DNA from: Pseudomonadales bacterium
Lineage (GTDB): Bacteria > Pseudomonadota > Gammaproteobacteria > Pseudomonadales > JANQJO01
Length of the DNA: 64,000 nucleotides
Direction of reading: 5' to 3'
Assembly: GCA_028281605.1 (NCBI GenBank)
Contig: JANQJO010000114.1
Coordinates: 20,711-84,710, forward strand
The notes beneath the pieces were generated by a model, which saw only the letters and a list, made by a program, of their open reading frames with translations, ran no database searches and was not told the origin of the DNA. Position 1 is the first letter of the stretch; every line of letters starts with the position of its first letter. Shown piece by piece: positions 30,849-35,372 of the stretch. Made by a program: the position numbers and the translations under genes.

Positions 30849-31298
30849 CTAGGGCTTAGATTCAAGCGCAAAATCCAAAACTCTATTTTGCCCCCACCAG
30901 ACCTTCCCTAAATATAAGCCAGGCTCAACTTCCCTGATTTCATCTCTTATTTTCTGAGCCAACAAGGAAGTCTTCCCATAATCAATCACAATGGTGTCCT
31001 TACCATCTAACCAGCTTTTATCTTTATACACTTTTGCTACAATCAAAGGCAAACTTAATAAAGAAATCTTATTGGTCAATACTCCTTTAGTCTCATCCGG
31101 AGAAAATAAATCAAAGACCTTTCCCTTCCAAGCAAAAGCTTTCGCAAGCCCAGCAAAGGCTTTTGATAATGGAGAACCCGGTAAAATTGCCGTACCATCA
31201 GTATTGCCAGCAGGAATGGTGCCCGGTAAGGCTTTCTTGTACACCCCATCCAGCTCCTCTTGTGACATACACAACCAATTTTCAACTGTTTTATTCAT
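30849..31298 (-). CDS. small cytoplasmic protein, GXWXG/DUF4334-like
   Basis: 149 aa with no signal peptide. FAWKGKVF (GxWxG-like) followed by DGKDTIVIDYG...IRDEIREVEPGLYLGKVWW, recalled as the GXWXG+DUF4334 two-domain family. Last gene of the operon. Confidence 0.4.
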   Translation of the reverse strand: MNKTVENWLCMSQEELDGVYKKALPGTIPAGNTDGTAILPGSPLSKAFAGLAKAFAWKGKVFDLFSPDETKGVLTNKISLLSLPLIVAKVYKDKSWLDGKDTIVIDYGKTSLLAQKIRDEIREVEPGLYLGKVWWGQNRVLDFALESKP

Positions 31299-31346
31299 AT
31301 TCTTACTCCTTCATCCTTAAAACAAAACTAAGCAATCAATGCTACT

Positions 31347-32387: not shown

Positions 32388-32405
32388 TGATTAAAATCCA
32401 AAGCT

Positions 32406-35372
32406 CTAAAATGCTGGGTCACTCTTAGCATCTGCTCTTGGCTTCCATTCTAACGAGTAATACTCACCTCGATCACGCGCCCAAGGATCAAACGCGTTGG
32501 CAACTTGCATTAATTCATCACGCAATTGCGGAATGTTACGTATTAACAAACGCTTCAAAGGAGAAACTTGCATTTTGTGGCCGTTGATTAGTTCCGGCTC
32601 ATTACATACCTGTCCACCCCCTGCTGTAGATTCTAGCGGATAAGGACAACCACTGAGCGGGCCATTATTGAGTACCCAGTCATAACCCAGCCGCGAATAA
32701 AATTCTGGACGAAAACTGGAGGTAAAAAATCTATCACTGAACAGACGACGCGAGGCATTAATAATAAAAATATGAAATTGAGTTTCTGAGATCGCATAAC
32801 CGTGCGGGCGAGTATACTCAGCCAACCAGCCAACTACTGTATCTAAATCTTCAATATTATCAACTCGAGTACCATGAGGATGTCCCAGACAATCATTAAT
32901 AAACTTACCCTGATCATCCTTTTGAGCATAGGAAATTATTTTATTTTCATCACAAATATGTGTACCGTAAATTTCTCGTATTTCAGTAACTACTTGCTCT
33001 TGGGCTTTACGCTCTGGCGAGCCTTTCAATAAACGTCTATCAACAAAATCATCAAAACTAGTCAAAGTCTTCAAACCAATTTGCCGACGAAACTCATTAA
33101 AACGAGGAACACCCCGTTCTCGATCTCGAATAACGTCCAAAGCCACAATATCAAGTTTATTGGTAGGCGTGTTCAAATGAGACATATCAAGATTTTGCAA
33201 AAAATGAGGATGATTTTTTAAGTGCAGCAAACCCAAACGCTGACGCCCCATACTCAAGGCCCAGTTATCTAAACCACGATTATGCATATGAGCTGTCGCT
33301 TGGCCCCGTATTGTATCAACCACTGGGATCTTTAATTTGATCTTGTTCGGATTTTCATTCTCTCGATACTCAATCAAATCAGGTAATAAAGGATGCAAAC
33401 GATAAACAGAAGTAAATTCCTCAGGAAAGTTGAAGGGTGAACCAAAGTGATTGATCCCACCATTAATATGCTCAGGATTAGTCAAATCCCAAACATCTCG
33501 CTTCCACCACAAAAAACCTTTCTCTATAGTATTACCTAAACCAAAAATCCCAGCACCAGATGCTAATACCGAATAAAGTGAGTTAGCCTTCTTACTATCA
33601 CTCGATCTTCCTAACCAACCCGTCACTTTACTGGAAGAGCTGCCTAAGAAACTCTCATCAGTTTGCAAAACTGTTTTAAGTGCCTTTGACACACGACTCT
33701 CTTCCGTTTCAAACAAACCAAACCAGTTTGCATTCATAGCTTTATAAAGCGGATCATTGTAGAGTAACTGGGTCGTCCACTCTATGGTATGAATTTTTGC
33801 AATTTCTGCCGATACAACCAAGCGGGCTGCCTGATACAAAATCTCATCATCGACCTGATCATAAGTAATAATGCGCTGCGGATCCTTAGGGTCACGTAAG
33901 CCTGAATCTGAAGCCGGATACTGCTTTTGCATTTCTCGAAACGCATCAACAAACGTATTATGTTCACGCACAAACAAGTTGTGATAAAAACTTAAACCAA
34001 TATTCCAGTTATCAGCAAACGCTGCTGCTTCTTGACCTCGCCATTGCGGCTGGATAAGACAATCACCTCGCTGTCGATCACACTCGGGGAAAACCGGCAA
34101 ATATCCATCCTTTTGTAACAGCTTTGCTGAATCTTTAGGGTCACGCAAAGCACGACGAACCGACTTTTCATCAAAGCCATAGATTTGCGATGCATCCCAC
34201 CAAGCCGTTACATGATTACTTGTAGTTTTATAAGCTCTTTCTAGATACTCTTTACCCTCATGGGAAAAAGTTTTCGGCTCTGTTGTCTGAGCATACAATG
34301 AAGGCTCCATGCGATCTTGCGGCCTACAACCGAGTCTAATCGCCTCACGTGTTTCACACCCTACTGGAACCAACTTCTTTTCATTTCGACCTTCATCAAC
34401 ATGACTGAACCAATCATGCGTCATAAACTGTATCCAAAAAGCCGCTAATACATTAAAAAAAGGTGCTTTCAAATAATCACATTGCGCCATAGGGGAATGT
34501 CCATCAAACCCCATGCCTTTATTGCAAGTATCGGTAGGAGAATCAATTGATCGCGTAAAAAGTTTACGACTGATTAACTGAGGGTCTGGCTCAAGTAAGC
34601 CTATCCTGAGCCCATTTTCAGCATCAGAGTGCCGCGCCCTTGCCAAAGGGTTTTTGGTCAGTCTAGGGAAGGTCGAATCAAACTCCACATTACGCGAAAA
34701 ATAGGTACCGGTCGAACCCATTTTGGGATTGTAAATATCATTACAAATACCCGTCAGGGTTCTATATCGAATCAACTCGCCACGACATAGCTGAGCAACA
34801 TCACTTCCTCCAACTGCTTCGTATTGAGAATGATTTTTGGACAACCTCATTTCAGGCCACTGTTTTAGAGCAGGCCCTTGCGCATCATCCCGACCTTTGA
34901 TATAACTTGGAAAAGTATAGTTATCAAATAAATTAAATTTGATCAACTCTATACGCTGATATTCCAAATCTAATAAAGAACCATCAACCCCACGACCGTT
35001 CGGCTTTATATGTTTGCCTAAAGCTGTGCTTGCTTCAGCCCCATCCCTCTTACTAGAGTCATCTCCAGTTGCCCAGTAATTTGACCAATCAACCCATGGA
35101 TAGTCTCTATTCTTTACTGCCTTTTCCCCACCCCTACAACGCGCTGTTTCAGGACCGACCTTCCCTAAAAAACGTTCTGACCGCTCCTGGGCAATAGGAC
35201 GGATTTCATCTTTTAGCATATTGACACAAGCTTGCGTATCCGTAAAAGCAAACACTGGGGCTGTTTGCACACACAAAAATACAGAAGCCACAGCTAAGAA
35301 ACGACCACCAATAGAACAAAAGTTACTCAAACCAACAGTGAAAAATCCCTTTCTCATAAAAACCCCACTCAA
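32406..35372 (-). CDS. exported haem peroxidase-superfamily fatty-acid dioxygenase (cyclooxygenase/alpha-dioxygenase-like)
   Basis: AFWIQFMTHDWFSH (distal His319), WWDASQIYG, and EEFTSVYRLHPLLPD (Tyr657/His660). These match the alpha-DOX (WIQFMIHDW, VYRMHSLLPD) and COX (YHWHPLLPD) signature blocks. N-terminal signal-like segment ends AFA|FTD. Confidence 0.8.
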   Translation of the reverse strand: MSGVFMRKGFFTVGLSNFCSIGGRFLAVASVFLCVQTAPVFAFTDTQACVNMLKDEIRPIAQERSERFLGKVGPETARCRGGEKAVKNRDYPWVDWSNYWATGDDSSKRDGAEASTALGKHIKPNGRGVDGSLLDLEYQRIELIKFNLFDNYTFPSYIKGRDDAQGPALKQWPEMRLSKNHSQYEAVGGSDVAQLCRGELIRYRTLTGICNDIYNPKMGSTGTYFSRNVEFDSTFPRLTKNPLARARHSDAENGLRIGLLEPDPQLISRKLFTRSIDSPTDTCNKGMGFDGHSPMAQCDYLKAPFFNVLAAFWIQFMTHDWFSHVDEGRNEKKLVPVGCETREAIRLGCRPQDRMEPSLYAQTTEPKTFSHEGKEYLERAYKTTSNHVTAWWDASQIYGFDEKSVRRALRDPKDSAKLLQKDGYLPVFPECDRQRGDCLIQPQWRGQEAAAFADNWNIGLSFYHNLFVREHNTFVDAFREMQKQYPASDSGLRDPKDPQRIITYDQVDDEILYQAARLVVSAEIAKIHTIEWTTQLLYNDPLYKAMNANWFGLFETEESRVSKALKTVLQTDESFLGSSSSKVTGWLGRSSDSKKANSLYSVLASGAGIFGLGNTIEKGFLWWKRDVWDLTNPEHINGGINHFGSPFNFPEEFTSVYRLHPLLPDLIEYRENENPNKIKLKIPVVDTIRGQATAHMHNRGLDNWALSMGRQRLGLLHLKNHPHFLQNLDMSHLNTPTNKLDIVALDVIRDRERGVPRFNEFRRQIGLKTLTSFDDFVDRRLLKGSPERKAQEQVVTEIREIYGTHICDENKIISYAQKDDQGKFINDCLGHPHGTRVDNIEDLDTVVGWLAEYTRPHGYAISETQFHIFIINASRRLFSDRFFTSSFRPEFYSRLGYDWVLNNGPLSGCPYPLESTAGGGQVCNEPELINGHKMQVSPLKRLLIRNIPQLRDELMQVANAFDPWARDRGEYYSLEWKPRADAKSDPAF

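Follow-up and report, generated by a model that had tools for sequence, protein, structure and literature searches.

What do three adjacent minus-strand genes, placed between flhA and dusB-fis-purHD on a contig of a Pseudomonadales bacterium (JANQJO010000114.1, assembly GCA_028281605.1), do for their host? We followed up these genes computationally within a 64,000-nucleotide (nt) stretch of that contig (positions 20,711 to 84,710), hereafter the window, in whose numbering coordinates are given unless a related locus is named. A sequence-only reading of the window had seen in them an exported haem dioxygenase, a truncated catalase and a GXWXG/DUF4334-like protein, and had proposed that together they form an uncharacterised bacterial oxylipin pathway. 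Our analysis points to a narrower answer, which we regard as probable while leaving considerable room for doubt: the trio is one operon that oxidises free fatty acids outside the cytoplasm by means of an exported alpha-dioxygenase (alpha-DOX) and a mini-catalase without the distal His, joined by a small cytoplasmic protein. The elements of the earlier proposal that computation could probe came out as it expected, subject to the amendments given below, and no outcome that it had named as refuting was observed. All three open reading frames (ORFs), together with the gaps of 18 nt between genes 1 and 2 and of 48 nt between genes 2 and 3, lie exactly where that reading had placed them in the ORF list.

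32406..35372, minus strand: gene 1, ORF of an alpha-DOX-type haem protein, 988 amino acids (aa) from TTG 35372
31347..32387, minus strand: gene 2, ORF of a mini-catalase-fold haemoprotein, 346 aa
30849..31298, minus strand: gene 3, ORF of a predicted cytoplasmic protein of an unclassified family, 149 aa

The first step toward this answer is the assignment of gene 1. The motif blocks AFWIQFMTHDWFSH, WWDASQIYG and EEFTSVYRLHPLLPD, from which membership of the animal-haem-peroxidase superfamily had been deduced, are all present, and Pfam places the protein in An_peroxidase (PF03098, 2.7e-69). With respect to the branch of the superfamily, the alpha-DOX part of the original assignment stood, whereas its cyclooxygenase (COX) part did not. 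As a single sequence searched against the Protein Data Bank (PDB), gene 1 matched the alpha-DOXs of rice (4.6e-61) and Arabidopsis (2e-55), with other peroxidases appearing only faintly; a profile built from 19 members of its family matched alpha-DOX at 3.4e-74, with lactoperoxidase next at 1e-9, and found no COX chain in the whole PDB at E<=1e-3. Judged by its sequence, gene 1 is a member of the alpha-DOX branch of the animal-haem-peroxidase superfamily. Its homologues number more than 2300, the closest being 65 to 69% identical. The ORF of 988 aa is as previously described, but ATG 35357, five codons into it, is the likelier start, because the NCBI product (P0001) has 983 aa and because a GAGUGGGG stretch precedes this ATG.

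32658..34766, minus strand: gene 1 catalytic domain (An_peroxidase/alpha-DOX), approximately residues 203 to 905
34416-34418, minus strand: His319, opposite the distal His157 of rice alpha-DOX
33789-33791, minus strand: His528, equivalent to rice His311 in the alignment to 4kvj/4kvl
33402-33404, minus strand: Tyr657, opposite rice Tyr379
33393-33395, minus strand: His660, opposite the proximal His382 of rice alpha-DOX
32745-32750, minus strand: Arg875/Arg876, of which Arg876 is equivalent to rice Arg559

The codons proposed for His319 and His660 translate as such, and the catalytic roles suggested for these two residues and Tyr657 agree with their positions opposite the catalytic residues of the rice enzyme. 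The Y379F mutant entry 4kvl has its exchanged residue, Phe, in precisely the Tyr657 column, and the radical Tyr lies in an EEFTSVYR(L/M)H motif that gene 1 and alpha-DOX have in common. In rice alpha-DOX, H311 and R559 bind the carboxylate of the substrate and T316 positions its alpha-carbon, with W315, F549, F552, I553 and A556 as further substrate-recognition sites (PMC8720084). The alignment pairs each of these with a residue of gene 1 (H311 with H528, W315 with W532, T316 with T533, F549 with F866, F552 with F869, I553 with I870, A556 with A873, and R559 with R876); the eight are invariant or nearly so in the gene-1 family, and H319, H528, T533, Y657, H660 and R876 are invariant across its 19 profiled members. 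It is mainly because these substrate residues are kept one-for-one that we favor oxygenation at C2. The protein furthermore has 14 conserved Cys and two conserved extensions, of about 200 aa at the N terminus and about 90 aa at the C terminus, which match nothing.

The second step concerns gene 2, which had been described as a truncated catalase core, and the fold bears this description out. Its AlphaFold2 (AF2) model, with a predicted local distance difference test (pLDDT) value of 88, gave MAP-2744c as the best Foldseek match (3e4y, 3e-15; template modeling [TM] score of 0.76 on the target), followed by coral allene oxide synthase (cAOS) at about 1e-13 (1u5u, 3e-13) and true catalases at about 1e-11, while a 20-member profile searched against the PDB gave cAOS at 4.5e-9, catalases at about 1e-6 and MAP-2744c at 9e-6. 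Pfam Catalase (PF00199) reaches 21.3 bits over residues 69 to 168 only, against a cut-off of 25 bits, and the 346 aa of gene 2 compare with about 480 aa or more in full catalases.

32196-32198, minus strand: gene 2 Arg64, equivalent to cAOS R64
32187-32192, minus strand: Asn66-Gln67, at the positions of cAOS T66-H67
31953-31955, minus strand: Asn145, the distal Asn (cAOS N137)
31389-31391, minus strand: Arg333, equivalent to cAOS R349
31377-31379, minus strand: Tyr337, equivalent to the proximal Y353 of cAOS

In cAOS, the haem is bound by R64, R102 and R360, with Y353 as the proximal residue and T66, H67 and N137 on the distal side (PMC5617202). Gene 2 has R104 for R102 and R344 for R360, its R333 stands four residues before Y337, and Y337, R333, R344, R64 and R104 are invariant in its family at a cAOS-like spacing. 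On the distal side, RFNQxK is invariant in all 44 gene-2 homologues, with Gln67 at the position held by the distal His in the catalase motif RxxHxKG. As modeled, gene 2 is a catalase-fold, tyrosinate-ligated haem protein without the catalytic His of catalases, allene oxide synthases (AOS) and hydroperoxide lyases (HPL); it also has four conserved Cys. Since the distal His is replaced by Asn-Gln, gene 2 is very unlikely to dismutate H2O2, and we rejected it as a true catalase on this ground. A catalase with a distal His-to-Phe exchange, PDB 3hb6, is in the Foldseek list under the title 'inactive mutant H54F'.

Do the three genes belong together? A genome scan with a gene-3 profile returned 555 loci with a gene-3 relative, of which we examined the best-scoring 80, a selection that is biased towards close relatives. 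The expected proximity of the three genes in related genomes was borne out: among the 68 loci whose upstream sequence is long enough, 44 have them colinear in the order 1-2-3. With gene 2 as the anchor on metagenome contigs, the gene immediately upstream of it is gene 1 in 57 of 59 cases, and the one immediately downstream is gene 3 in 65 of 69. The genome loci come from Gammaproteobacteria (Alteromonas, Hahella, Marinobacter, Methylococcales, Sedimenticola and bivalve symbionts) and, beyond these, from Betaproteobacteria (Nitrosomonas, Nitrosospira), Alphaproteobacteria and Desulfobacterota; the lifestyles represented among the 80 are free-living marine bacteria, nitrifiers, methanotrophs, sulfur-oxidising animal symbionts, and sulfate- or sulfur-cycling Desulfobacterota. 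From Gamma-, Beta- and Alphaproteobacteria to Desulfobacterota, each of the three proteins keeps an identity of about 60 to 70%, and the flanking genes vary from genome to genome. Such identity across phyla combined with varying flanks suggests horizontal transfer under strong constraint.

The trio is bare in the window, whereas most other genomes carry six co-directional genes, in which genes 1, 2 and 3 are followed by genes for a 435-aa protein (U435), a DyP-like protein and a second catalase-fold protein (catB, as distinct from the gene 2 type, catA). Two related loci illustrate this arrangement, which is absent from the window.

L050:4962-13527: six-gene cluster
L004:5018-13533: six-gene cluster

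Alteromonas-type genomes keep genes 1, 2 and 3 and continue with two tandem RoxA-like di-haem cytochromes c, without the cytoplasmic module. These tandem paralogues, of about 500 aa, are found at the following positions.

L056:9463-12473: RoxA-like tandem paralogues
L065:9463-12470: RoxA-like tandem paralogues
L073:9460-12470: RoxA-like tandem paralogues
L080:9508-12529: RoxA-like tandem paralogues
L028:4485-7803: RoxA-like tandem paralogues

When the 64-kb window was searched by tblastn for U435, DyP-like, catB, GMC oxidoreductase and RoxA-like genes, none of them turned up, the sole match being gene 2 itself.

The third step is localisation. The proposal that genes 1 and 2 encode exported proteins is supported across both families, as judged by hydropathy and lipobox pattern.

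35247..35357, minus strand: gene 1 signal peptide by hydropathy, residues 6 to 42 (MRKGFF...APVFA, followed by FTD)
32313-32387, minus strand: gene 2 signal peptide, residues 1 to 25

A signal-like N-terminal segment occurs in 46 of 50 members of the gene-1 family (17 with a lipobox), in 30 of 44 of the catA type (14 with a lipobox) and in 12 of 12 RoxA-like proteins, in which no lipobox was detected; in gene 1 itself, the N-terminal hydropathy maximum over 12 aa is 2.3. For gene 3, U435, DyP-like and catB, only 2 to 10 of 55 to 60 proteins each reach the hydropathy threshold, with at most 1 lipobox, and the gene 3 of the window has no N-terminal hydrophobic segment. Genes 1 and 2 also have about double the Cys content, and none of the four conserved Cys of gene 2 is found in its predicted cytoplasmic paralogue, catB. 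We therefore predict genes 1 and 2 to be extracytoplasmic and gene 3 to be cytoplasmic.

What, then, is gene 3? Its likeness to GXWXG/DUF4334 proteins, suggested at the outset, is indicated at the level of the fold and fails at the level of the family. Pfam and NCBIfam return nothing for it, the GXWXG and DUF4334 hidden Markov models (HMMs) do not match it even at E<=10, neither model matches any of 54 diverse gene-3 relatives at E<=1, and PDB sequence searches with gene-3 profiles gave no true match. The AF2 model (pLDDT 80) packs three helices against an antiparallel sheet of six strands; Foldseek matched its fold significantly to a single PDB entry, 4mve_A (probability 1.0, E 8e-3, TM score 0.47), over the full length of both proteins of about 150 aa. 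The matched protein, 4MVE (Tcur_1030), is a genuine carrier of GXWXG (PF14231, 3.7e-16) and DUF4334 (PF14232, 1.7e-27). When the gene-3 family was compared with 4MVE fragments by hhalign, the probability was 1.4% and only a W-x-G-K-x-F stretch aligned, so that homology of gene 3 to GXWXG/DUF4334 is not supported by sequence; the GXWXG motif itself is absent from gene 3. There are 1577 close homologues, all labelled 'hypothetical', and an exhaustive profile search gave 1040 cluster representatives at E<=1e-3. The conserved polar residues of the family (K60, N76, S95, D98, D106, Y107, S111 and R118-D-E-x-R122) suggest a specific ligand or catalysis.

31119-31130, minus strand: gene 3 motif W57-x-G59-K60
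30933-30947, minus strand: gene 3 motif R118-D-E-I-R122

Elsewhere, gene 3 neighbours GMC oxidoreductases, a molybdenum (Mo) aldehyde-oxidase-type enzyme, a P450 and RoxA-like/FadCcp-type cytochromes. All of these are enzymes of lipid, alcohol or aldehyde oxidation, which is supporting context for a fatty-acid-oxidising operon. Gene 3 is thus a general companion of many oxidoreductases and not specific to the gene 1/gene 2 pair. Its domain also occurs in fusions: with a P450 (587 aa), beside a divergently transcribed An_peroxidase gene; with a transmembrane helix and a RoxA-like cytochrome (654 aa), in 15 sequence variants from independent assemblies; and with U435, an ADC-like domain or an An_peroxidase fragment.

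P0396 (L162:3475-5439): gene-3 domain fusion protein
P0437, P0394, P0374, P0429, P0449 and P0489: further fusion proteins

As the RoxA-like part, a c-type cytochrome, must be periplasmic, the gene-3 domain of that fusion lies at the cytoplasmic face of the membrane. Gene 3 does, therefore, partner exported enzymes, to which it is fused across a membrane helix.

These observations open the way for a bolder hypothesis, which we put forward tentatively and consider rather less than probable. In this scenario, gene 3 founds an unrecognised family of at least 1040 cluster representatives, distantly related in fold to GXWXG/DUF4334, that serves as a universal cytoplasm-side adaptor for lipid-oxidising oxidoreductases, its partners being alpha-DOX-type proteins, His-less mini-catalases, DyP-like and RoxA-like proteins, P450s, GMC oxidoreductases and Mo aldehyde oxidases. 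The trio would then be the minimal form, and the six-gene cluster the full form, of a horizontally spread, two-compartment, multi-haem system for fatty-acid alpha-oxidation or oxylipin formation, in which the Asn-Gln and Gly-Asn catalase-fold enzymes would carry out undescribed hydroperoxide chemistry.

For the trio itself, we propose the following course of events. Gene 1, exported by the Sec pathway, would bind a fatty acid carboxylate-first through His528 and Arg876. The Tyr657 radical, made by the His319/His660 haem, would take a hydrogen from C2, where O2 would add to yield a 2-hydroperoxy fatty acid, the product of the plant and cyanobacterial alpha-DOXs. Gene 2, likewise exported, would take over this unstable hydroperoxide and convert it under control. 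With respect to its reaction, which we infer, we favor cleavage of the O-O bond together with decarboxylation, which would leave the C(n-1) aldehyde; alternatively, the hydroperoxide might be reduced or dehydrated, giving the 2-hydroxy or 2-oxo acid. In the cytoplasm, gene 3 probably binds or acts on the lipophilic compound, be it substrate or product, on the inner side of the membrane, a role that we infer as well, and it may link the periplasmic step to the cytoplasmic enzymes that are encoded directly downstream in most genomes and are absent from the window.

Several points weigh against this proposal. The signal peptides were judged by a hydropathy threshold and a lipobox pattern rather than by a trained predictor, and gene 3 is predicted to reside in a compartment other than that of genes 1 and 2. 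Loci of Hahella, Marinobacter and Oleiphilaceae have gene 3 without genes 1 and 2. The extensions of gene 1 are absent from plant alpha-DOX, and its substrate could therefore be something other than a fatty acid. The title of a cited review names a Thr-His pair as the hallmark of those catalase-related proteins whose reactants are fatty-acid hydroperoxides; gene 2 lacks this pair, and its chemistry may therefore differ. Furthermore, according to a review, 2-hydroperoxy acids break down on their own to C(n-1) aldehydes or else yield 2-hydroxy acids (PMC9305512), so that a dedicated second enzyme is not strictly needed. Finally, our proposal leaves unexplained how haem-b proteins exported by the Sec pathway would acquire their haem.

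The alternative that survives best concerns only gene 3, which might be functionally unrelated to genes 1 and 2 and belong instead to the downstream U435/DyP-like/catB module, its presence in the window being a leftover of module loss. We think this possible, though on the unlikely side. Such an origin would agree with the lack of a signal peptide on gene 3 next to two predicted exported proteins and with the existence of fusions of gene 3 to U435, and in Hahella, Marinobacter, Oleiphilaceae and several Nitrosomonas, gene 3 heads the series U435-DyP-like-catB with no adjacent gene 1 or 2. In addition, all 27 metagenome loci with long flanks have either U435 and DyP-like genes (22) or RoxA-like genes (5) after gene 3. 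Against this, the gene 3 of the window is undamaged, and each of the 51 positions that are invariant in its close family is preserved. Moreover, the Alteromonas-type loci hold genes 1, 2 and 3 without any cytoplasmic module, the 15 fusion variants tie gene 3 to periplasmic RoxA-like enzymes, and the placement of gene 3 after gene 2 in 65 of 69 loci speaks for the connection that our operon reading assumes.

Somewhat less likely still, in our view, is a chemistry like that of Nostoc punctiforme. There, according to secondary accounts of Brash et al. 2014 (PMC13049297, PMC9579011), a 10S-dioxygenase (10S-DOX) is paired with a separately encoded, catalase-related 10S-hydroperoxide lyase. By analogy, gene 1 would oxygenate an unsaturated fatty acid at an allylic carbon (e.g., C8 to C10), and gene 2 would act as an enzyme of the HPL or AOS type, yielding short aldehydes, alcohols or epoxides as signals. 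Besides the characterised Nostoc precedent, as those accounts give it, coral AOS is the best solved match of the gene-2 family profile, and some variants of the locus have neighbours of the RoxA-like/FadCcp type, a family that acts on oleate. Yet the Nostoc 10S-DOX, a COX-like protein of 542 aa about 31% identical to COX, belongs to a lineage that we rejected for gene 1 for want of any COX similarity: at E<=1e-3 the gene-1 profile finds no COX, and it finds alpha-DOX at about 1e-74. The alpha-DOX residues that position C2 (H311, T316 and R559) are all kept in gene 1, and gene 2 has no distal Thr-His of the kind found in AOS and HPL. We thus retain C2 oxygenation as the preferred reaction of the operon.

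It is improbable that genes 1 and 2 merely serve periplasmic oxidative-stress defence, with gene 1 as an unspecific peroxidase, gene 2 removing H2O2 or lipid hydroperoxides in a catalase-like manner, and no dedicated fatty-acid pathway. The family names, 'animal haem peroxidase' and 'catalase family protein', invite this view, and both proteins are predicted to lie outside the cytoplasm, where exogenous peroxide arrives first. Against it, gene 2 has Gln for the distal His throughout its 44 homologues and misses the Pfam Catalase cut-off, gene 1 has retained the radical Tyr along with the carboxylate binders His528 and Arg876 and matches solved peroxidases at least 60 orders of magnitude worse, and a strict three-gene synteny with a small non-redox protein would be unexpected for simple scavengers. 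Least credible of all is a role for gene 1 like that of the MopA-type animal-haem-peroxidases, extracellular proteins described for Mn(II) oxidation or superoxide production: the Pfam family PF03098 is common to both and gene 1 is predicted to be exported, but it lies in the alpha-DOX branch, the wrong one for a MopA-type enzyme, with the radical Tyr and the fatty-acid-binding residues, carries no Ca-binding repeat domains by Pfam, and has a catalase-fold protein as its conserved partner rather than Mn-oxidase accessory genes, and we rejected this candidate accordingly.

Among the proteins of the wider cluster, U435 (L004:9457-10770 and homologues) has a central hydrophobic hairpin at about residues 220 to 245 and the conserved motifs LHFARF and IHFARW...NYDGS; no Pfam family, no PDB sequence relative and no hhalign link to its DyP-like neighbour was found for it. 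The DyP-like protein is divergent and has about 510 aa, catB has about 400 aa, and the two are sometimes fused into proteins of 880 to 926 aa. In catB (L016:12332-13546, L001:12482-13660 and 53 other loci), RGGNTK is present in 55 of 55 sequences where catalase has RxxHxKG, so that this protein, too, is without a distal His, with Asn in its place; of the features of the gene-2 type, the distal Asn, the signal peptide and the four Cys are missing from it as well. In the variant of Hahella, Marinobacter and Oleiphilaceae, the order is alpha/beta-hydrolase, GMC oxidoreductase, gene 3, U435, DyP-like, catB and an esterase-like 283-aa protein, with the GMC oxidoreductase stop overlapping the gene-3 start (L001:5880-14575; also L002, L003, L007, L008, L024, L052 and L075). 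Nitrosomonas loci have gene 3, U435, DyP-like and catB without gene 2, most with a GMC oxidoreductase and a cytochrome-c-like gene upstream and several with a gene-1 homologue beyond. At L080, a P450 gene lies directly upstream of gene 3; compared with the PDB, it is a generic P450 and uninformative. In Roseobacter cerasinus (L051:8989-16756), gene 3 is followed by a flavin adenine dinucleotide (FAD)-binding subunit, a 990-aa molybdopterin enzyme of the aldehyde-oxidase/xanthine-dehydrogenase type and a 1130-aa An_peroxidase, an arrangement that fits an aldehyde intermediate.

Domain matches of the flanking genes bear out the placement of the trio, with FlhA (FHIPEP, 1e-269) and the SRP54-type FlhF on one side and Dus, Fis (HTH_8), PurH and PurD on the other. 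The GC content across the trio, 0.39 to 0.43, is not distinct from that of the pur side. Over positions 24000 to 30000 it rises from about 0.32 to 0.35 on the flhF side to about 0.40 inside flhA, and it stays at 0.39 to 0.45 through the trio and the pur genes, with no sharp island boundary at the trio.

35373..35848, no strand assigned: divergent intergenic region between gene 1 and dusB, 476 nt, presumed promoter region
30825..30838, minus strand: weak hairpin AAGCC-GGGA-GGCUU, 3' of gene 3, not a convincing terminator

The hairpin at 30824 to 30840 with which the sequence-only reading had closed the unit did not hold up: it has only a 5-bp stem and no U-tract, it was not called by the terminator scan, and the fold of 30825 to 30838 is no better than chance when compared with shuffled sequence (z = -1.1). 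Terminator and promoter scans around the trio gave nothing convincing; upstream of gene 1, the promoter scan gave no minus-strand match of the sigma-70 type, and its promoter-like matches as a whole were no commoner than in shuffles. An Rfam search of the whole window returned no family. A 109-aa ORF at 30991-31320 on the plus strand, antisense to gene 3, is almost certainly a shadow ORF of that conserved gene.

Bacterial oxylipin and alpha-oxidation enzymology is sparse, and the Nostoc pair was the sole characterised bacterial combination of a dioxygenase with a catalase-related protein that turned up. If our proposal is true, a secreted alpha-DOX would provide an ATP-free route to fatty aldehydes of biotechnological interest, gene 2 would be a new catalytic variant of the catalase fold, and gene 3 would give the first functional handle on a large 'hypothetical' family that may be related in fold to GXWXG/DUF4334. 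The purpose of exporting fatty-acid oxidation might then be the detoxification of antibacterial free fatty acids, the breakdown of branched lipids, or signalling.

How does the trio compare with the systems closest to it? The alpha-DOXs (rice 4KVJ/4KVK and Arabidopsis 4HHR, as well as CalDOX, LepDOX and CsDOX) belong to the same peroxidase-cyclooxygenase branch as gene 1, which keeps their distal and proximal His, radical Tyr, carboxylate binders, Thr316 equivalent and five further channel residues. Known members convert fatty acids to 2(R)-hydroperoxides and C(n-1) aldehydes, have about 620 aa and are intracellular and monotopically associated with membranes or lipid droplets, whereas gene 1 has 983 to 988 aa and adds a Sec signal or lipobox, the 14 Cys, the two extensions and a catalase-fold partner. 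Three prokaryotic alpha-DOXs have been characterised, all of them cyanobacterial, according to a review, and proteobacterial homologues have been noted in a phylogeny only.

For gene 2, the best structural match to the model is MAP-2744c, a 33-kDa protein of Mycobacterium avium ssp. paratuberculosis (3E4W/3E4Y) that is similar in size. The two are 20% identical, and gene 2 differs in its predicted export and its four conserved Cys. MAP-2744c is said to keep the distal His and to have an organic-peroxide-dependent peroxidase activity. Plexaura cAOS (1U5U/3DY5) has the catalase core fold, the residues of a Tyr-ligated haem and the distal Asn in common with gene 2, which differs by N66-Q67 in place of T66-H67; the partner of cAOS is a lipoxygenase (LOX), fused to it in corals, whereas that of gene 2 is of the alpha-DOX type. 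With gene 3, the GXWXG/DUF4334 protein 4MVE has the local W-x-G-K-x-F motif in common.

A periplasmic two-enzyme pathway of fatty-acid dioxygenation has a counterpart in Pseudomonas aeruginosa, in which PA2077 and PA2078, tandem RoxA-like paralogues, are an oleate dioxygenase/diol synthase system of the periplasm (PMC4496055). These FadCcp proteins resemble the tandem RoxA-like pairs of the Alteromonas-type variants and differ from genes 1 and 2 in protein family and in their c-type haems; the window has none of them.

The pairing of a dioxygenase with a catalase-related protein is also found in corals, as LOX-AOS fusions (PMC5617202), and in cyanobacteria, again as LOX-AOS. Since such a pair has been characterised in Nostoc, the concept is not new; of the trio itself, the literature we searched holds no description. 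Going by the available accounts of it, the Nostoc pair resembles ours in joining a haem dioxygenase of the COX/peroxidase superfamily to a separate small catalase-related gene whose product converts its hydroperoxide, and ours departs from it in having an alpha-DOX-like first enzyme, predicted export of both proteins, Asn-Gln for the distal His and a conserved third gene. Relative to the literature searched, what appears to be new is the alpha-DOX-type partner, the predicted export of the dioxygenase as well as of the mini-catalase, a catalase fold with Asn-Gln or Gly-Asn on its distal side, the conserved third gene with its large unclassified family, and the six-gene context.

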